Origin: a virus
Length of the DNA: 10,714 nt
UHGV virus genome: UHGV-0188446
Strand: one strand, 5' to 3'
Made by a program: the position numbers and the translations under genes. The notes beneath the pieces were generated by a model. It saw only the letters and a program-made list of their open reading frames with translations. It had not been told where the DNA came from and made no database searches. Positions 914 through 10,155 of the stretch are shown one piece after another (position 1 is the stretch's first letter; each line of letters opens with the position of its first letter).

Positions 914-959
914 TCGCTTTGTCAGCGACGTAGGACGAATGTCCATTGTGAAAAGAGCG
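914..959 (-). promoter_or_regulatory. Candidate nutR: boxA-like CGCTCTTTT (complement of 951-959) and P22-type boxB hairpin TCGCTGACAAAGCGA (complement of 914-928)
   Basis: On the PR transcript just after the cro stop, CGCTCTTTT matches the boxA consensus. It is followed about 22 nt later by a 5-bp stem with GACAA pentaloop, the same loop as the nutL boxB at 3851-3865. The spacer is longer than in lambda. Confidence 0.4.
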
Positions 960-966
960 GTGTTAC

Positions 967-1167
967 TTATGCAGTTGTTTTTTTGTTACTTGGGAAGGGC
1001 TTTATTTCTTCCGCATAAACGCTTCCATCAGCGTTTATAGTTAAAAAAATCTTTCGGCCTGCATGAATGGCCTTGTTAATCGCGCTTTGATATACGCCGA
1101 GATCTTTAGCCGTCTTGGTTTGCCCAAAGCGTATTGCATAATCTTTCAGGGTTATGCGTTGTTCCAT
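967..1167 (-). CDS. cro: Cro repressor
   Basis: 66-aa [69 protein letters not shown], essentially the lambda Cro sequence as recalled. AGGAGG Shine-Dalgarno (complement of 1171-1176). Divergent from cI across the OR operators. Confidence 0.95.
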
Positions 1168-1191
1168 ACAACCTCCTTAGTACAGGCAATC

Positions 1192-1262
1192 ATTATCACC
1201 GCTAGAGGTAAAATAGTCAACACGCACGGTGTTAGAAGTTTATCCCTTGCGGTGATAGATTT
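1192..1262. promoter_or_regulatory. Right operator OR1-OR2-OR3 with divergent promoters PR (toward cro) and PRM (toward cI)
   Basis: Three 17-bp lambda-type operators: OR1 1194-1210 tatcaccgctagaggta, OR2 1218-1234 caacacgcacggtgtta, OR3 1241-1257 tatcccttgcggtgata. PR -10 is GATAAT (complement of 1192-1197) and -35 is TTGACT (complement of 1215-1220) with 17-bp spacing. PRM lies on the plus strand with the cI ATG at 1268 directly downstream (leaderless arrangement as in lambda). Confidence 0.9.
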
Positions 1263-1264
1263 AA

Positions 1265-1981
<717 letters not shown>

Positions 1982-2130
1982 TGGGCAAGGTGTTCTGGTC
2001 GGCGCATAGCTGGTGAAAAAATTATTTAATGCGGTGTATTGGCTGATTGTAACCCCATGTAACATCTTGCCGTCACCATTTCGGTGGTTAGATTTTTAAT
2101 AAAAAAAACAAATGTATAGCAAGGTTTTTT

Positions 2131-2610
2131 ATGGATAAAATTAATTACCCACCCCTGTTTGAGCCAGGGTTCCATGACATGGATGAAGCTGGATTAAAAT
2201 CGTATTGTGTCGATTGCTTTCCTTCATCATCCAGGCGAGGCATGCTATACTGTAATTTTATACAGCTACTCGAATCTATTCGAGAATTATCTGCTCAATA
2301 TGGCTGTTTTACAGAAATATGGGTTGATGGTTCATACACCACGTCTAAACCAGAGCCTGATGATATTGATATTTTGTTGGTATGTGACTATAGCAATATA
2401 AACTCAATACCTGTCATGCTTCGGGGCCGCGTCGATAATTTGCTTGACCGAAACTACATCAAACAAAACTACAAAATTGATGTCCTACTACTCATGAAGA
2501 ATTTAGATGACCCTAACTATGATTATGAGTACTGGCGTAGCTACTGGCGCGGTTGGTTTGGTTTTGATCGCAGTGAAAACCCGAAAGGGTTAGTGAGGAT
2601 TTTTTTATGA
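2131..2610 (+). CDS. Hypothetical protein with minimal nucleotidyltransferase (pol-beta superfamily) signature; first gene of a two-gene cassette in the rexA/rexB position
   Basis: ORF track 2131..2610, 159 aa. Motif IWVDGSYTTSKPEPDDIDILLVCD fits the hG[GS]-x(9-13)-DhD pattern of minimal nucleotidyltransferases. AAGG about 9 nt upstream of the ATG. Stop overlaps the next gene's start (ATGA at 2607-2610). No resemblance to lambda RexA. Confidence 0.7.
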   Translation: MDKINYPPLFEPGFHDMDEAGLKSYCVDCFPSSSRRGMLYCNFIQLLESIRELSAQYGCFTEIWVDGSYTTSKPEPDDIDILLVCDYSNINSIPVMLRGRVDNLLDRNYIKQNYKIDVLLLMKNLDDPNYDYEYWRSYWRGWFGFDRSENPKGLVRIFL

Positions 2611-3539
2611 ATGATAAATCAATGTTTAAAAATTGCGATAAACGCATTGATTTCATTCAAAAAGAAGTCGATGCAATGAAGCAAAACAAAACCAGGTCCT
2701 TTGCTGACATGCTTCTTTATCGCTCCATGGATTCTCATCTGAGCGATTTGAAGGCCGAAAAATTAAAGCAAGATAGTCGGCACCCACTTATCGATTTTTT
2801 TGAGCTGCGGCTGAAAGGCTCTGAGGTTGACTTTGGCTCTATTCCTTTAGAGCTGCTTGGGGCTATTTCAACAAATCTTGCAGCGCTAATACAAAGAGCA
2901 ACACACAAAATTGCCTCAGGCAAGGACTCAAAAAAAGTTCCCTACGACGTGAAAAGCTCCTTAAACCTCAGGCTGGCTGATTTATCCCCTGGGTCTACAA
3001 AATTGGGCGTCACCTTCTCTACAGGAATAGCAGAATTAGTAGAAACAGTACCCAGCAAGGCTGTAAAAGGCATATTCGATTTGTTGTTAAGCGATGACGA
3101 CAACAACTTCATGAATCACGTCGCTGAAATTGGATACAATTCCACTGTAAGCCTTAAGAGAATCGTAGAGGAATGCGATAAACACAACTTAACATTTGAT
3201 GCAAGTTGGACCGGTCCATTTAGTAATGGCACCAAGGTGGCAACTATTGACTCCAATAAAATTAAGTACTTGGTGAGTAGACTTACATCAACCATTTCAT
3301 CCCCTCCCATTACTGAAACGGTTACAGGCGAACTGGTCGTTCTATCCAAATATGGGAAGCTGGAGCTTGATGTTGGTGGTGAACATTTAAAGGCTTCCTA
3401 TCCGATTGAAATGCTAGATTTAATACAAAAAAAACACAAGGTCGGACAGATTGTTTCTCTTTTAGTGGAGACTACTGAGATTCACAATGATCGCATAGGT
3501 CTGTACCGTAAAAACCATCTTGTTAAATCGGTTCTTTAA
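2607..3539 (+). CDS. Hypothetical 310-aa soluble protein of unknown function; second gene of the cassette, translationally coupled to the nucleotidyltransferase gene
   Basis: ORF track 2607..3539. ATG overlaps the upstream stop. No long hydrophobic segments, no Walker motifs, no resemblance to RexB seen by eye. An Rx4H string (RSMDSH, aa 39-44) is noted but is weak evidence. Followed by an intrinsic terminator. Confidence 0.7.
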   Translation: MNDKSMFKNCDKRIDFIQKEVDAMKQNKTRSFADMLLYRSMDSHLSDLKAEKLKQDSRHPLIDFFELRLKGSEVDFGSIPLELLGAISTNLAALIQRATHKIASGKDSKKVPYDVKSSLNLRLADLSPGSTKLGVTFSTGIAELVETVPSKAVKGIFDLLLSDDDNNFMNHVAEIGYNSTVSLKRIVEECDKHNLTFDASWTGPFSNGTKVATIDSNKIKYLVSRLTSTISSPPITETVTGELVVLSKYGKLELDVGGEHLKASYPIEMLDLIQKKHKVGQIVSLLVETTEIHNDRIGLYRKNHLVKSVL

Positions 3540-3546
3540 TATCTCA

Positions 3547-3572
3547 CCCGGCCACCGAGCCGGGTTTTCTTT
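3547..3572 (+). terminator. Rho-independent terminator closing the cI/cassette transcription unit
   Basis: GC-rich hairpin cccggc-caccga-gccggg (3547-3564) followed by ttttcttt (3565-3572), 8 nt after the stop of the 310-aa gene. Confidence 0.7.
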
Positions 3573-3719
3573 GCCTACCCCCCCCCAAAAAAAACACATA
3601 ACCAATTGTATTTATTTGAAAATTAATAGATACAACTCACTAAACATAGCAATTCAGATCTCTCACCTACCAAACAATGCCCCCTGCAAAAAATAAATTC
3701 ATATAAAAAACATACAGAT

Positions 3720-3782
3720 AACCATCTGCGGTGATTAATTATCTCTAGCGGTGTTGACATAAATACCACTGGCGGTGATACT
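3720..3782 (+). promoter_or_regulatory. Left operator OL3-OL2-OL1 with promoter PL (transcribing rightward in this window)
   Basis: OL3 3720-3736 aaccatctgcggtgatt, OL2 3740-3756 tatctctagcggtgttg, OL1 3764-3780 taccactggcggtgata. PL -35 TTGACA at 3754-3759 and -10 GATACT at 3777-3782 with 17-bp spacing. Near-identical to the lambda PL region as recalled. Confidence 0.92.
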
Positions 3783-3850
3783 AAACACATCAGCAGGACG
3801 CACTACTCACCAGGGCGGTGAATATACAACGATTCGAATATGAATCTACG

Positions 3851-3865
3851 GCGCTGACAAAGCGC
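3851..3865 (+). promoter_or_regulatory. nutL boxB hairpin of P22 type (GCGCUGACAAAGCGC)
   Basis: Perfect 5-bp stem gcgct/agcgc with pentaloop gacaa about 60 nt downstream of the PL start. This matches the P22 boxB as I recall it rather than lambda boxB (GCCCUGAAGAAGGGC). No clear boxA was recognised upstream. Confidence 0.6.
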
Positions 3866-3870
3866 AATAA

Positions 3871-4013
3871 CCAAAGTGAACTTTGGGGTGTGGTGAAGGG
3901 TTCATGGACGGGAATATGTCGCACGTAAAGCGGCGAGGCCTGCGGGACTATTGCCGAATTGAAGTAGGCCGAAACAGGTCGAAATGGGTCTCCCACCTAC
4001 CACACCACCAAAG
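3871..4013 (+). promoter_or_regulatory. N-leader RNA structure: long-range stem (3881-3895 with 4000-4013) plus competing local hairpin (3871-3886)
   Basis: ctttggggtgtggtg (3881-3895) is complementary to ccacaccaccaaag (4000-4013) with one bulge. ccaaag-tgaa-ctttgg (3871-3886) can form an alternative local hairpin. Lambda has an equivalent long-range leader duplex upstream of N that is processed by RNase III (recalled). The stem ends 8 nt before the N Shine-Dalgarno. Confidence 0.5.
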
Positions 4014-4030
4014 TTCATCAGGAGGTCTAT

Positions 4031-4414
4031 ATGACACGCAGAACTCAGTTCAAAGGCAATTCACGTTCTCGTCGTCGTGAGCGTTTAAAGGCAAAGGCAT
4101 TAGCTAACGGCGTGCTGGCCCGCGAAGAAGCAATAAGTTCAGAAGTATTACACCGCCCTACTCTAAGCAGAGCGCAGATTCAGGCTAAAGGTACTCACGA
4201 AACGCCTGAGCGCATAGAAGACGCTAAGCCAATTAAGTTCATGGCACAGGACGTGATCTGGCAACAGAAAGAATACAGACGCAATCTGGAGAGAGCGGCC
4301 ATTGTGTACGCGAATGAGTTTGGGCATAGGCAACCAGAAACTGGTGTATGTCTTCCAAATGTAGCTCTTTACGCGGCAGGCTACAGGAAATCAAAACAAC
4401 TGACAGCAAGGTGA
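4031..4414 (+). CDS. N: N-like transcription antitermination protein, P22 gene 24-like family, with arginine-rich N-terminal motif
   Basis: First gene downstream of PL/nutL. GGAGG Shine-Dalgarno at 4021-4025. N-terminal arginine-rich motif (NSRSRRRERLKAKALA). C-terminus ..CLPNVALYAAGYRKSKQLTAR resembles the P22 N C-terminus (..LLPGVALYAAGHRKSKQITAR) as recalled. Confidence 0.8.
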   Translation: MTRRTQFKGNSRSRRRERLKAKALANGVLAREEAISSEVLHRPTLSRAQIQAKGTHETPERIEDAKPIKFMAQDVIWQQKEYRRNLERAAIVYANEFGHRQPETGVCLPNVALYAAGYRKSKQLTAR

Positions 4415-4472: not shown

Positions 4473-4559
4473 ATGGAAGAAGAATTTGAAGAGTTCGAAG
4501 AGCATCCGCAGGATGTGATGGAACAATACCAGGACTATCCGTATGACTACGACTATTGA
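4473..4559 (+). CDS. Candidate 28-aa highly acidic micro-protein (MEEEFEEFEEHPQDVMEQYQDYPYDYDY)
   Basis: ATG at 4473 preceded by GAGGT 7 nt upstream; stop TGA at 4557-4559. Overlaps the ral start. Not in the ORF track because of size. Coding status uncertain. Confidence 0.25.
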   Translation: MEEEFEEFEEHPQDVMEQYQDYPYDYDY

Positions 4560-4743
4560 TAAGAATCAATGGTGTGGACAATTCAAACGATGCAATGGAT
4601 GCAAGCTGCAATCGGAATGCATGGTTAAGCCTGAAGAAATGTTTCCTGTAATGGAAGATGGGAAATATGTCGATAAATGGGCAATACGAACGACGGCAAT
4701 GATTGCCAGAGAACTTGGTAAACAGAATAACAAGGCTGCCTGA
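4543..4743 (+). CDS. ral: Ral, restriction alleviation protein
   Basis: 66-aa ORF MTTTIDKNQWCGQFKRCNGCKLQSECMVKPEEMFPVMEDGKYVDKWAIRTTAMIARELGKQNNKAA, matching lambda Ral as recalled. Same length as lambda ral (201 nt). Confidence 0.9.
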   Translation: MTTTIDKNQWCGQFKRCNGCKLQSECMVKPEEMFPVMEDGKYVDKWAIRTTAMIARELGKQNNKAA

Positions 4744-5406: not shown

Positions 5407-6087
5407 ATGGGAACTGCGACATTAATACTCGGTGAATCTGGCACCGGAAAATCAACCAGCATGAGAAATATCAACCCAGAGGAAGCAATACTTATAAAAC
5501 CAATAGGCAAGCCGCTACCATTTAAATCAAAAGACTGGCTTGCATGGGATGCCAGAGCAAAAAAAGGAACCGTAGTTACCACTGACAAATGGGACGTAAT
5601 AGTTGCTGTAATTAAGCGTGCTCACGAATACGGAAAAAGAATCGTTATTGTTGATGACTTCCAGTATGTGATGAGCAATGAGTTTATGCGCCGCTCAGAA
5701 GAAAAATCGTTTGATAAATTTACTGAGATAGGCCGCCACGCATGGGAGGTGATTAAGGCTGCACAGGATGCACCTGATGACCTGAGAGTCTATTTTCTTG
5801 CACACACCGAAGAAACCCCTATGGGGCGTGTGAAAATGAAGACTATCGGCAAAATGCTGGACGAGAAAATCACTGTCGAAGGCATGTTTACTATAGTTCT
5901 TCGCACCCTTACCCGCGATGACCAGTTCTTTTTCACCACGAAAAACAACGGTGCAGACACTGTAAAATCCCCAATGGGAATGTTTGATTCTAATGAGATT
6001 GATAACGATCTCTCTTTCGTCGATGCCACTGTTTGTGATTACTACGGCATCAATAATGTTCATCAAATTAAGGAAAACGCCGCATGA
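5407..6087 (+). CDS. Sak4-like phage recombination ATPase (RecA-fold P-loop NTPase)
   Basis: 226-aa ORF with Walker A GESGTGKST near the N-terminus and Walker B-like hhhhDD (RIVIVDD). Size and position in the recombination slot are typical of Sak4-type single-strand annealing ATPases. GAGG Shine-Dalgarno upstream. Confidence 0.65.
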   Translation: MGTATLILGESGTGKSTSMRNINPEEAILIKPIGKPLPFKSKDWLAWDARAKKGTVVTTDKWDVIVAVIKRAHEYGKRIVIVDDFQYVMSNEFMRRSEEKSFDKFTEIGRHAWEVIKAAQDAPDDLRVYFLAHTEETPMGRVKMKTIGKMLDEKITVEGMFTIVLRTLTRDDQFFFTTKNNGADTVKSPMGMFDSNEIDNDLSFVDATVCDYYGINNVHQIKENAA

Positions 6088-6671
6088 GCAACGTGATTTT
6101 TACTTATAACGAAGAAGCAGCACTGACCGCAGGGCAAGGTGGTTTTATTAACGAAACTGGTGCTCATATCATTACCATTACTGAAGCAGAACTAAAGCAA
6201 TCAGAAAAAGGAGCCAAATTTATTGAGTTTTCTGGCGAATCTGACGACGGACGTAAAATCCAATATCTTAGCGTCTGTGTTCAGAAAAATGACGGAACGG
6301 AAAACAAATTTGGCGCAAATGTCGTTCACGCCATGATGGGGTGTGCCGGGATTGGACAATTAACGCAACATATGGTTTCCGCCAGTAAATTTGTTGCTCC
6401 TGAGTTTCATGGAAAGAAAATCGGGTTAGTGCTCCAGAAAGTATTAACCACAAACAAAAAGACTGGCGCAGACAACTACCAGATGGAAATACGCATCCCG
6501 TTTATTGCACAAACAGGTCAAACCCTTAAAGAAAAGGCAGAAGGCAAGCAACCAGAAACTATCGCCAACATGGTTGCCAATCTCAAAGATAAAGACAATC
6601 GCTCTAAAAACGTAAGCCAGAATCATGCAGATGATTATGGTTACAGCCAGAACGATTACCCTGCTTTCTGA
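6084..6671 (+). CDS. Putative ssDNA-binding protein partner of Sak4 (function inferred mainly from context)
   Basis: 195-aa ORF whose ATG overlaps the Sak4 stop (ATGA at 6084-6087). C-terminal tail ..DDYGYSQNDYPAF resembles the acidic/aromatic tails of SSB proteins. Sak4 genes are commonly followed by an SSB. Confidence 0.45.
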   Translation: MSNVIFTYNEEAALTAGQGGFINETGAHIITITEAELKQSEKGAKFIEFSGESDDGRKIQYLSVCVQKNDGTENKFGANVVHAMMGCAGIGQLTQHMVSASKFVAPEFHGKKIGLVLQKVLTTNKKTGADNYQMEIRIPFIAQTGQTLKEKAEGKQPETIANMVANLKDKDNRSKNVSQNHADDYGYSQNDYPAF

Positions 6672-7169: not shown

Positions 7170-8032
7170 GCAAGATTGACTATCAGGTACTGCGTGCCAA
7201 GGCAGAAAAAGCAACGTGTGGTGTATGGTCGCTCGAATATGGAGAGAGCCGATTTGATGGTGATGATGCTCTAATTTATCGCGAGGCTGCTGGATATATT
7301 CCCATTTGCAGAATTGAAGGAGCGCATCCAGAAAGCGGTTTCGATGAAGATTTCCAAATGGAACAGCAGGCCAATGCTGAATTCATCGCCGCAGCCAATC
7401 CCGCTACCGTCTTGGCCCTGCTGGATGAACTGGAAAGAAACCAGCAATACATAAAACGCCGCGATCAGGAGAACGAGGATATTGCGCTAACGGTAGGGAA
7501 ACTGCGTGTTGAGCTTGAGGAGACAAAATCAAAACTCAACGAGCAGCGCGAGTATTACGAAGGTGTCATCTCGGATGGAAGTAAGCGCATAGCAGAGTTG
7601 CAGACAAAATCTGCACCAGATTCGTTTGGCATCATCGGTGAAAATATTCGAACACAGGATAATCGAATAACGTCAGACCCTATGTTTTGTGTGTATCAAA
7701 AGTGCGAAATTGTTGTTGATGCTGATTATGACTATGACCGGATTGTCTGGGTTGATGAAGATGGCAATGAAGCCAATAAACGCCAAAGTCGTCGTCTCGA
7801 ACTACTTCACGAAAACTTTCGAGAGCCACCAGAAAAATGGCGGCGCGTTGCTGTGAAAGATATTGATGAATTCGTTACCTGCTGTTTCACCGAACAGGGT
7901 TGTAAAGACTACCTGGCAGCCAATGGTCACAATCTTCGCTTGCCATTTATATATGTAAAAAGCGGTTTCAGGAACGCTGAATATATCGGCATAAGAAACT
8001 GGCTTGCTGGCATTCGCATCAAAGGAGAGTGA
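7166..8032 (+). CDS. Ea22-like protein (coiled-coil-containing phage early protein of unknown function)
   Basis: ORF track 7145..8032. Preferred start is GTG at 7166 (AGGAGG 8 nt upstream, GTGA overlap with the upstream stop), giving [15 protein letters not shown].... Assignment rests on position upstream of ea8.5 and general resemblance to Ea22-family proteins; not verified. Confidence 0.5.
8007..8032 (+). repeat. 26-bp direct repeat, copy 1 (ctggcattcgcatcaaaggagagtga)
   Basis: Identical to 8501-8526. Encodes the C-terminal GIRIKGE plus stop of the Ea22-like gene and carries the AAGGAG Shine-Dalgarno for the next gene. Confidence 0.9.
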
Positions 8033-8034
8033 GA

Positions 8035-8526
8035 ATGCAAATTTCACCGGTTACTCTTCGTGTTGCGAAGGCGTTTATATCCAGACATCACCGACACAAT
8101 AAACCCCCGGTGGGGCATAAATTCAGCATTGGTCTGAGAAATGATGCCGGAGAATTGATAGGTGTGGCGACAGCCGGTAGACCTGTTGCACGACATTTGG
8201 ACGATGGATTAACGCTTGAAGTAAATCGCACATGTACCACAGGAGAACGCAACGCTAACAGCGCGCTTTATGGTGCTGTCTGGCGGGCAGCAAAGGCTAT
8301 GGGTTATCAACGTTGTATTACGTACACCCAGGCAGATGAATCAGGAGCATCTCTCCGCGCAGCTGGTTTTGTTCGTGTGAAAGAGCTTCCTCCAAGAAAA
8401 AGCTGGGCGGAATCAAGCGTCGCCCTGCGGAGTAAACGCGATCCGGTCGGAAACGGTGGTGTTCCTCGTGTGCTCTGGGAAATCAGGAGAATGAGTACCA
8501 CTGGCATTCGCATCAAAGGAGAGTGA
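8035..8526 (+). CDS. Hypothetical protein (163 aa), possibly GNAT-like fold; inserted gene bounded by 26-bp direct repeats
   Basis: ATG at 8035 with AAAGGAGAG upstream (the track starts at GTG 8029). Product MQISPVTLRVAKAFISRHHRHNKPPVGHKFSIGL.... The C-terminal GIRIKGE plus stop is encoded by the second repeat copy. Fold assignment is a weak impression only. Confidence 0.5.
   Translation: MQISPVTLRVAKAFISRHHRHNKPPVGHKFSIGLRNDAGELIGVATAGRPVARHLDDGLTLEVNRTCTTGERNANSALYGAVWRAAKAMGYQRCITYTQADESGASLRAAGFVRVKELPPRKSWAESSVALRSKRDPVGNGGVPRVLWEIRRMSTTGIRIKGE
8501..8526 (+). repeat. 26-bp direct repeat, copy 2
   Basis: Perfect copy of 8007-8032. Confidence 0.9.
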
Positions 8527-9819: not shown

Positions 9820-9936
9820 CCATGAAATAACACCGCCTCACACTCGATGAGGCCTGTTCATTGCTCAATGATATCCAGACCTACCATCGCCGCATCAATG
9901 CGGCTTTTTCTTGCGTGTAATTGCGGAGACTTTGCG

Positions 9937-10155
9937 ATGTACTTGACACTTCAGGAGTGGAACGCACGCCAGCGACGCCCAAGAAGCCTTGAAACAGTTC
10001 GTCGATGGGTGCGCGAATGCAGGATATTCCCTCCTCCGGTTAAGGATGGAAGAGAGTATCTGTTCCACGAATCAGCGGTAAAGGTTGACTTAAATCGACC
10101 AGTAACAGGTAGCCTTTTGAAGAGGATCAGAAATGGGAAGAAGGCGAAGTCATGA
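9937..10155 (+). CDS. xis: Excisionase Xis
   Basis: ATG at 9937 within track ORF 9847..10155. The 72-aa product MYLTLQEWNARQRRPRSLETVRRWVRECRIFPPPVKDGREYLFHESAVKVDLNRPVTGSLLKRIRNGKKAKS matches lambda Xis as recalled. Same length as lambda xis. 3' end overlaps int. Confidence 0.93.
   Translation: MYLTLQEWNARQRRPRSLETVRRWVRECRIFPPPVKDGREYLFHESAVKVDLNRPVTGSLLKRIRNGKKAKS

Follow-up and report, generated by a model that had tools for sequence, protein, structure and literature searches.

A two-gene nucleotidyltransferase cassette of the candidate family PDC-M63 in the place of rexA-rexB in a lambda-type immunity region

We examined a 10,714-nucleotide (nt) stretch of the virus genome UHGV-0188446 (hereafter, the window), whose list of open reading frames (ORFs) describes a lambdoid early region in the orientation opposite to that of the usual lambda map. 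Our subject is a cassette of two overlapping genes, ORF159 and ORF310, that encode proteins of 159 and 310 residues (termed A and B below) and lie between the cI repressor gene and the leftward operators (OL) and promoter (PL). An initial annotation, made from the sequence, proposed that this pair stands where lambda has rexA and rexB and that it is a defense or toxin-antitoxin module. The coordinates of the features are collected in Table 1.

Lambda (NC_001416, positions 35000-38400) was aligned with the window by blastn, and the breakpoints were taken from the limits of homology. Window positions 953-2012 correspond to lambda 38255-37196 at 96.9% identity, a segment that includes cro, the rightward operators (OR), and cI with the 31 bp that follow its stop codon. 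Positions 3546-3821 correspond to lambda 35825-35550 at 90.4% identity, starting at the end of the rexB frame and taking in the terminator, OL3-OL1, and PL. For positions 2013-3545, zero resemblance to lambda was detected by blastn. Because the lambda matches stop at 2012 and resume at 3546, rexA and rexB have been replaced exactly, with 1533 bp in the window occupying the place of the 1370 bp that hold both genes in lambda. The initial placement of the cassette between cI and OL/PL was therefore correct, as was the description of cI, OL, and PL as lambda-type. The leader sequence at 1984-2012 is common to lambda and phage mEpX1 and the sequence is cassette-specific from 2013 on, so the left recombination joint lies in that stretch. 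A foreign origin had also been proposed from base composition. Both hand counts of guanine-plus-cytosine (GC) content behind that proposal were exact (0.333 at 2341-2400 and 0.467 at 1681-1740, each a 60-nt sample), but the values for the whole cassette, cI, and the window are 0.405, 0.455, and 0.439, respectively. Because the whole cassette is only modestly AT-rich, its GC content is a weak sign of foreign origin; the strong evidence is provided by the mosaic breakpoints.

The junction of the two genes reads TTTTTATGAATG, and both the sizes of the ORFs and the 4-nt ATGA overlap that had been noted initially were confirmed. On the basis of this overlap, A and B are translationally coupled. A terminator scan placed the stop codon of B 6 nt ahead of a GC-rich hairpin with a folding energy of −13.6 kcal/mol (z = −3.2 versus shuffled sequences). 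The intrinsic terminator that had been assigned to the end of the two genes is real, but it belongs to the lambda-type flank and not to the inserted segment: it is situated at the position of the terminator that follows rexB in lambda and is common to lambda and many lambdoid phages. In the leader between cI and ORF159, a hairpin at 2069-2088 was considered as a barrier to read-through and was rejected (z = −0.39, no better than shuffled sequences), and a promoter scan of the same leader revealed no promoter-like site. In view of the lack of a convincing terminator or promoter in the leader, read-through from the repressor promoters is the simplest expectation. By analogy to rexAB in lambda, we infer that the operon would be transcribed with cI from PRM and PRE and that both proteins would be present in the lysogen.

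A promoter-like site (CTGTCA-17-GATAAT, 9 of 12 matches) is located on the coding strand within ORF159 at 2411-2439. In lambda, the promoter PLIT lies inside rexA and drives rexB, and the site in ORF159 recalls that position. Promoter-like sites in the region are fewer than in shuffled sequence (four found versus 6.2 expected), and this one may be due to chance. No Rfam family was matched within 1900-4100, and the only repeats detected were short two-copy ones at the chance level; hence, there is no sign of an RNA antitoxin or of an aba-like repeat element. A C9A8 homopolymer tract (CCCCCCCCCAAAAAAAA, 3578-3594) is found just past the terminator and near the end of the mEpX1 homology (3575), and it could represent a slippage-prone tract or a recombination scar.

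Table 1. Positions of the cassette, its flanks, and neighboring early-region features in the window
Feature	Position	Strand	Remarks
Replication gene fragment	14-361	minus	
cII	533-829	minus	
cro	967-1167	minus	
cI repressor, lambda immunity type, 237 residues	1268-1981	plus	Pfam Peptidase_S24 (7e-29) and HTH_3 (2.6e-11); first gene of the lysogenic operon, followed by the cassette
Leader between cI and ORF159, 149 nt	1982-2130	plus	AAGG 7 nt before the ATG
Swapped segment, 1533 bp	2013-3545	plus	In the place of lambda 37195-35826 (rexA-rexB)
ORF159 (A, PDC-M63A), 159 residues	2131-2610	plus	
ORF310 (B, PDC-M63B), 310 residues	2607-3539	plus	
Intrinsic terminator	3546-3565	plus	Hairpin ACCCGGC-CACCGA-GCCGGGT, then TTTTCTTT; closes the cI-A-B unit
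Lambda-type OL operators and PL	3700-3821	plus	Right-hand frame of the slot; PL is TTGACA-17-GATACT (−35/−10) at 3754-3782
N antiterminator, 127 residues	4031-4414	plus	Pfam N_peptide

Properties of the two proteins

Protein A was assigned to DUF6932 (PF22014, E = 1.7e-24, 87.3 bits versus a cutoff of 27), to PADLOC PDC-M63A (PDLC04744, E = 1.8e-41, residues 1-158 versus profile positions 1-148 of 152), and to phrog_9194; some of its homologues also match PF01909. Gly67, Ser68, Asp78, and Asp80 are invariant in 45 homologues with identities down to 33%, which, together with the DUF6932 match, upholds the GS...DID nucleotidyltransferase motif (DID = 78-80) initially recognized in the 159-residue protein. 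In the same 45 sequences, Asp117 is at least 90% conserved, and most residues are invariant in the C-terminal motif R136-SYWRGWFGF-145, with Trp142, Gly144, and Phe145 conserved at 90% or more. As judged from its sequence, A is an intact minimal pol-beta nucleotidyltransferase that combines the pol-beta signature with a family-specific C-terminal motif. The AlphaFold model of A has a predicted local distance difference test (pLDDT) score of 96, and its nearest solved folds are 2rff, the MntA chains 7ae9, 7ae2, and 6m6u, and, more distantly, CdnC, all of them weak matches (E = 3e-3 to 8e-2). The family profile aligns the GS and DxD motifs, weakly, with the palm of DNA polymerase beta. The protein is acidic, with an isoelectric point (pI) of 4.7, and is without a membrane segment, as is B (highest 19-residue hydropathy means of 1.25 for A and 1.38 for B).

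Protein B has no Pfam family, as was also the case for 55 diverse B homologues, in which a Pfam scan revealed scattered noise and no recurrent family. It matches six PDC-M63B models, of which the best is PDLC04749 (E = 7.5e-45, residues 23-304 versus profile positions 20-300 of 309), and it is phrog_6603. A profile search of the full database retrieved 271 clusters at the 50% identity level, and nearly all of the best 150 of these 271 are 300-330 residues in length. The model of B (pLDDT 81) consists of an N-terminal helical hairpin (10-56), a central alpha/beta domain (∼62-231), and a C-terminal oligonucleotide/oligosaccharide-binding (OB) fold (∼235-309). The predicted strands of the latter domain span residues 235-246, 251-256, 259-264, 282-294, and 299-309, with a helix at 267-276 and pLDDT values of 85-93. 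This predicted domain is a five-stranded closed beta-barrel with the helix between strands 3 and 4, as expected of an OB fold, and in the model its structure would overlay that of SSB, RPA, or RuvA domain I. In 55 B sequences of 20-46% identity, Ser130 and Trp201 are the only invariant residues besides Met1; in addition, position 63 is always Glu or Asp, Gly129 is near-invariant, and Arg68 and Arg122 are conserved at 89% and 84%, respectively. Gly129 and Ser130 are positioned in a predicted hairpin loop between two strands, and residues 125-128 of this loop have pLDDT values of <50. The protein is soluble and mildly basic (pI 8.3), and its sequence exhibits no recognizable set of catalytic motifs.

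Foldseek comparison of the central domain of B with the Protein Data Bank (PDB) repeatedly returned class III cyclases, Thg1-like enzymes, and Cas10/Cmr2, in each case with very weak scores (E = 5e-3 to 0.3, template modeling (TM) score ∼0.2). The order of secondary structure elements in the model is compatible with a palm, but the hairpin carries G-S-T in place of the acidic motif of a palm and the matches have no profile support; a palm-like central domain is thus a lead only. Proteins resembling PDC-M32A weakly share the central subdomain, and a search toward these proteins with B residues 58-152 (alignment A4) returned four fragments only. We also considered B as a HEPN protein, since it contains R39-x4-H44, and rejected this assignment: position 39 is Lys, Glu, Ser, Arg, or Asp in the family, His44 is 69% conserved, and only two isolated subthreshold HEPN matches were obtained in 55 family members.

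Structure prediction and profile searches provided a nucleotidyltransferase fold for A and, for B, a predicted C-terminal OB fold and no Pfam family. Sequence and family-profile searches of PDB chains with A and B yielded nothing significant, NCBIfam contained no match for either protein, and the literature on DUF6932, the protein accessions, and the locus tags held nothing on function. Both ORFs are real genes because distant homologues, down to 33-45% identity for A and 20-27% for B, keep their length and gene order.

Among the characterized systems, MntA-HepT shares with the cassette a two-gene operon, in which the gene for a minimal pol-beta nucleotidyltransferase comes first, and GS...DxD in the enzyme; A is of the MNT size class and fold, and MntA chains are among the nearest solved folds to it. 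In contrast to that system, A falls in DUF6932 and not in the MntA family (with weak fold matches, E = 3e-3 at best), and B exhibits no HEPN match in Pfam or PADLOC, no conserved Rx4-6H, and a predicted architecture of helical hairpin, alpha/beta domain, and OB fold instead of a four-helix bundle. Because its partner is not HEPN, the pair is not an MNT-HEPN system. AbiE and MenA-MenT are likewise two-gene modules built around a pol-beta-superfamily nucleotidyltransferase and tied to abortive infection. In these systems, however, the enzyme is a DUF1814 protein of ∼300 residues, about twice the size of the 159-residue DUF6932 protein A, and B lacks the winged-helix AbiEi-type or other helix-turn-helix (HTH) domain; no match to AbiEi, AbiEii, or DUF1814 was obtained with Pfam or PADLOC. 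The pair is therefore not AbiE, having the wrong nucleotidyltransferase family and no AbiEi. These results agree with the initial remark that the cassette recalls MNT-HEPN and AbiE modules without matching them. RexA-RexB is encoded at the same position, between cI and the terminator that precedes OL, is also a two-gene unit, and is expressed from the repressor promoters in the lysogen, as A and B presumably are. The cassette nevertheless has no DNA similarity to rexAB, no match to a Rex family, no RexB-like membrane protein, and unrelated domains; given the absence of similarity and of a membrane protein, it is not Rex. No PADLOC model for CBASS (cyclic oligonucleotide-based antiphage signaling) was matched, CdnC is a weak fold neighbor of A (E = 2e-2), and B has no known effector domain; the pair is not CBASS. 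BstA of prophage BTP1, encoded downstream of cI, differs in being a single unrelated protein with a self-immunity element, aba; no aba-like element or repeat was found near the cassette of the window. The logic of the pair is closest to that of type VII toxin-antitoxin pairs, and its genomic role is closest to those of rexAB and bstA. Compared to the characterized systems, the combination of a minimal nucleotidyltransferase with a non-HEPN, OB-fold partner is new.

Distribution of the cassette and its relatives

Window positions 1984-3575 are 99.7% identical to phage mEpX1, which encodes identical A and B proteins. The repressor gene ahead of the cassette is a different one in that phage (its protein is 48% identical), and the cassette is followed there by a different N gene together with Nun. 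At ≥99% DNA identity, where the cassette encodes RefSeq WP_016063144 and WP_016063143, carriers were found among 18 of 5426 complete E. coli genomes and were always chromosomal; one of them is a lambda-cI prophage adjoining a tRNA-Thr gene. With identical proteins present in mEpX1 and RefSeq, the cassette is already public and is not a novel discovery; literature searches on mEpX1 and mEp234 returned no study of it. An IS4-like ISVsa5 transposase interrupts the match to the cassette in E. coli KL53 (NZ_CP030919.1, 1787118-1790055), leaving two pieces of it. This copy is a natural insertional knockout, and loss of the intact cassette is thus tolerated in a lysogen. A 51-kb 'plasmid' record of Enterobacter asburiae (NZ_CP083846.1, 6741-7667), which is nonmobilizable, contains a 98%-identical B that was matched in four pieces. 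This record might represent a phage-plasmid, or else a prophage that was misassigned and has a frameshifted copy of B.

The right flank of the cassette (3546-3640, the terminator and ∼75 bp) is 84-95% conserved in 187 E. coli genomes and 73 phage records that hold other cassettes in the slot. A survey of other lambdoid elements confirmed that the interval from cI to OL is a variable cassette site. It contains rexA-rexB at locus L016 and hicA-hicB-hicC, annotated as toxin, antitoxin, and chaperone, in mEp234 (locus L014, 1875-3005, PV340539.1), which demonstrates that toxin-antitoxin-type cargo also uses the position between cI and the terminator. In E. coli RMDEC465 (locus L015, 1842-3507, NZ_CM177019.1), a DUF3024-DUF6978-DUF1828 trio, followed by IS66 and IS4 elements, is a further candidate occupant of the rex slot. 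The cI-N interval has been described as a mosaic hotspot that houses the abortive-infection genes rexAB in lambda and bstA in BTP1 (PMC8585504).

We compared nine loci that contain the pair, namely those of the window, mEpX1, Erwinia phage vB_EhrS_59, E. coli phage PhiR30_1, and five species-representative genomes (Silvania, an Enterobacteriaceae metagenome-assembled genome, Proteus vulgaris, Biostraticola tofi, and Citrobacter werkmanii). The latter five loci derive from a genome scan with the closer alignment (A1) and suffice for context, as opposed to a taxonomic census. The order of repressor, A, ATGA-overlapped B, and hairpin with T-run was invariant in all nine, with the pair directly 3' of an HTH repressor gene on the same strand and the GC-rich hairpin and T-run, the same as or equivalent to that of the window, within ∼40 nt after B. 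A Peptidase_S24 domain is present in six of the nine repressors and absent from three. A cro gene is annotated upstream of the repressor in the four phage-type loci, and a small, oppositely oriented ORF at that place in the five genome loci was read as cro-like. The repressors range from identical to undetectably similar, the A proteins share 56-62% identity, and the B proteins share 46-57% (54-57% in vB_EhrS_59 and PhiR30_1 and 46-56% in the five genomes). The short A in two phage records results from start-codon miscalls, and the full-length protein is present. The invariant architecture and the flanks of the slot show that these cassettes travel by recombination at short conserved joints. 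The exact replacement of rexAB and the constancy of the architecture among different immunity types are new here, as are the assignment of domains in B, the candidate site Ser130, and the pairing at the distant loci described below.

In sequence terms, the pair is no different from PDC-M63 and is a member of it: A and B are adjacent on the same strand in that order, and both models were matched over their full length. A search of the PADLOC defense catalogue thereby placed both proteins in a candidate system. PDC-M63 is one of 145 candidates, labelled untested, that came from a guilt-by-embedding screen for cassettes located within BREX, DISARM, or type I restriction-modification (RM) loci (Payne et al.; 10.1101/2024.01.29.577857). 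In all five of the distant metagenomic loci with A homologues that were examined (36-45% identity), an ORF of 309-319 residues follows immediately downstream with a small overlap or gap, and the two of these five ORFs that were compared with ORF310 are full-length homologues with 23-27% identity. Type I RM genes, complete or partial, are situated beside the pairs at two of the five loci (L004 and L010); YoeB/YefM are additional neighbors at L010, a DUF4011 helicase is a neighbor at L013, and the L011 pair is next to ImuB/DnaE2. At L007 and the near-identical L008 (Ga0182027_10002008 and Ga0182017_10003590), the pair is part of a series of small genes on one strand, among them an N6/N4 methyltransferase, a Lar-like gene, RadC, and an LPD28-family gene. 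The pairing of A with B is ancient, and its other homes point to defense, with L007/L008 being the one exception.

Possible functions of the A-B pair

With about even confidence, we regard the cassette as a lysogen-expressed accessory operon of a lambda-immunity prophage, a PDC-M63 member in the exact place of rexA-rexB, and we lean slightly toward the view that it serves anti-phage exclusion or defense. Of the known phage-exclusion systems, that of the lambda rex locus is the oldest, and the slot between cI and PL is a natural site for prophage genes that protect the lysogen. In the specific mechanism that we envisage, A and B would form a complex in which A, using a nucleoside triphosphate, nucleotidylates B and keeps it inactive, by analogy to MntA-HepT. 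The candidate modified site is the invariant Ser130 in the predicted hairpin loop of B. When another phage infects, this control might lapse, or the OB domain of B might meet single-stranded DNA or RNA of the phage; B would then block replication or expression of the intruder, resulting in exclusion or abortive infection. We consider nucleotidylation of B at Ser130 rather unlikely in this precise form. If the cassette is active, it would define a defense family of a minimal nucleotidyltransferase and a non-HEPN, OB-fold partner, and it would either carry the type VII toxin-antitoxin principle of an enzyme that modifies its partner to a further family or represent a new ligand-guard scheme; if it is inactive, it would counsel caution about predictions based on guilt-by-embedding and hotspots. 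The presence of PDC-M63 in a lambda-type immunity region, and of identical proteins in the cultivable phage mEpX1, makes the question tractable by standard lambda genetics.

Several results weigh against a defense function. The initial proposal of a defense or toxin-antitoxin module is favored by the finding of a catalogued candidate in the rexAB slot, but deletion of the prophage-encoded PDC-M63AB of E. coli NILS69 left the infectivity of 10 virulent double-stranded DNA phages unchanged (PMC12409345). That deletion, made in the native host, is the sole reported experiment on PDC-M63AB. Because PDC-M63 is a prediction with one negative native-host test, membership in it says nothing certain about function. 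The evidence from guilt-by-embedding is circumstantial, and the same is true for the hotspot position as evidence for defense. The L007/L008 context resembles the anti-restriction regions of mobile elements and fits an anti-defense or other role, and the cassette is rare in E. coli at 18 carriers in 5426 complete genomes. With regard to mechanism, B contains no recognizable effector domain (nuclease, membrane, TIR, SIR2, or similar) and offers no evident route by which it would stop a phage; A resembles MntA only weakly in structure (E = 3e-3 to 8e-2, TM score ∼0.3); and the proposed Ser130 nucleotidylation draws only on analogy and conservation.

Other assignments of the two activities were weighed against the proposed inhibition of B by A. 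A could be the toxic effector, in the manner of AbiEii or MenT, modifying tRNA or another nucleic acid, with B acting as a targeting or sensing subunit or as an antitoxin. The complete catalytic signature of A and its conserved RSYWRGWFGF segment, which could contact nucleic acid, are consistent with this role, as are the lack of a catalytic-looking residue set in B and the presence of an OB fold, a typical anticodon- or single-stranded DNA-binding module that would suit a targeting subunit. We consider a toxic A unlikely, however, since it is a 159-residue minimal enzyme of DUF6932 and not a ∼300-residue DUF1814 toxin, no PADLOC AbiE model was matched, no orphan or truncation pattern was seen to mark a toxic partner, and the nucleotidyltransferase-first gene order is that of the antitoxin MntA followed by HepT. 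Alternatively, A might constitutively make a nucleotide or short oligonucleotide that is bound by the OB and central domains of B, with phage interference activating B. Such a guard or signaling scheme would make use of the active-looking nucleotidyltransferase, the predicted OB fold, and the paired arginines (Arg68 and Arg122), Gly-rich loops, and weak cyclase/Cas10 palm matches of the central domain, and its logic is that of inhibitory-signal systems such as Hailong and Panoptes, a type of system described in recent literature. It is very unlikely given that B has no membrane or enzymatic effector module, the unit has no third gene, and the palm-like matches are very weak (TM score ∼0.2, E = 5e-3 at best) with no profile support. 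A related possibility, to which we assign a slim chance, is a mechanistically new form of prophage immunity without a conventional effector, in which A would load or make a nucleotide or oligonucleotide for B, with its perhaps degenerate palm-like domain and OB fold, and the complex would act as a guard. In Enterobacterales, such a module would have become specialized for carriage in repressor operons, in no fewer than six immunity types that are unrelated or diverged. The A-B complex would sense single-stranded nucleic acid of the phage, or interference by the phage with the ligand, and then block replication directly.

Two further explanations remove the direct action against phages from our preferred reading of exclusion or defense. 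The pair might be an addiction or stability module of the type VII kind that stabilizes the prophage or the immunity region. A translationally coupled pair with the gene for a modifying-type enzyme first is what such a module would have, the same slot holds the hicA-hicB-hicC set in mEp234, and the NILS69 deletion was evidently viable and had no defense phenotype (PMC12409345). That deletion is uninformative in this respect, however, because removing both genes would not reveal addiction, and the distant homologues reside in chromosomal RM-associated loci instead of unstable elements; many toxin-antitoxin systems also act in defense, in which case the explanation overlaps with the preferred one. 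On this evidence, pure addiction seems improbable. Quite unlikely, too, is a phage-serving role in modulation of lysogeny or induction, in DNA metabolism through binding of single-stranded DNA, or in counter-defense against the host. The association with repressor genes in all nine Enterobacterales prophage loci, the single-stranded DNA handling suggested by the predicted OB fold, the typical anti-restriction neighborhood at L007/L008 (Lar, RadC, methyltransferase, and LPD28-family gene), and the ImuB/DnaE2 neighbors at L011 could all be accommodated by it. Against it stands established lambda biology: the interval from cI to the terminator is expressed in the lysogen, at a time when the DNA metabolism of the phage itself is silent. 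The negative outcome of the published defense test (PMC12409345) would fit a phage-serving pair, but the other known occupants of the slot are exclusion or abortive-infection systems (PMC8585504), and the family has been found embedded in RM, BREX, and DISARM loci (10.1101/2024.01.29.577857).

Other features of the window

Lambda homology ends at 3821, and the adjacent nutL-N module (3822-4414) is of a non-lambda type. It includes a hairpin, GCGCTGACAAAGCGC, at 3851-3865, which we take to resemble a P22-type boxB, and the C-terminus of the 127-residue N protein is of the P22/Stx-phage type. The immunity region is thus a hybrid that joins lambda repressor specificity to a non-lambda antitermination module. 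Ral, Kil, and recombination and Ea-type genes are located 3' of N in the window, with the Ral antirestriction gene (4543-4743, Pfam 1.6e-48) just downstream of N.

A 226-residue AAA_24 ATPase (5407-6087) overlaps a 195-residue ORF without a family (6084-6671); located at the position of the lambda recombination genes, it is probably a Sak4-like recombination ATPase with its partner. Near the right end of the window, an Xis-like ORF (9847-10155) gave a weak PADLOC match to mad1 of the MADS system (2.3e-6), which most likely reflects generic similarity among small HTH proteins. A 165-residue ORF (8029-8526) exhibits a subthreshold Pfam match to Mom (E = 7.2e-5, 23 bits versus a cutoff of 27.1) and may encode a Mom-like DNA-modification (anti-restriction) enzyme among the early-left genes. 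In another E. coli genome, a related prophage region contains a gene with the annotation Nmad5 family putative nucleotide modification protein.

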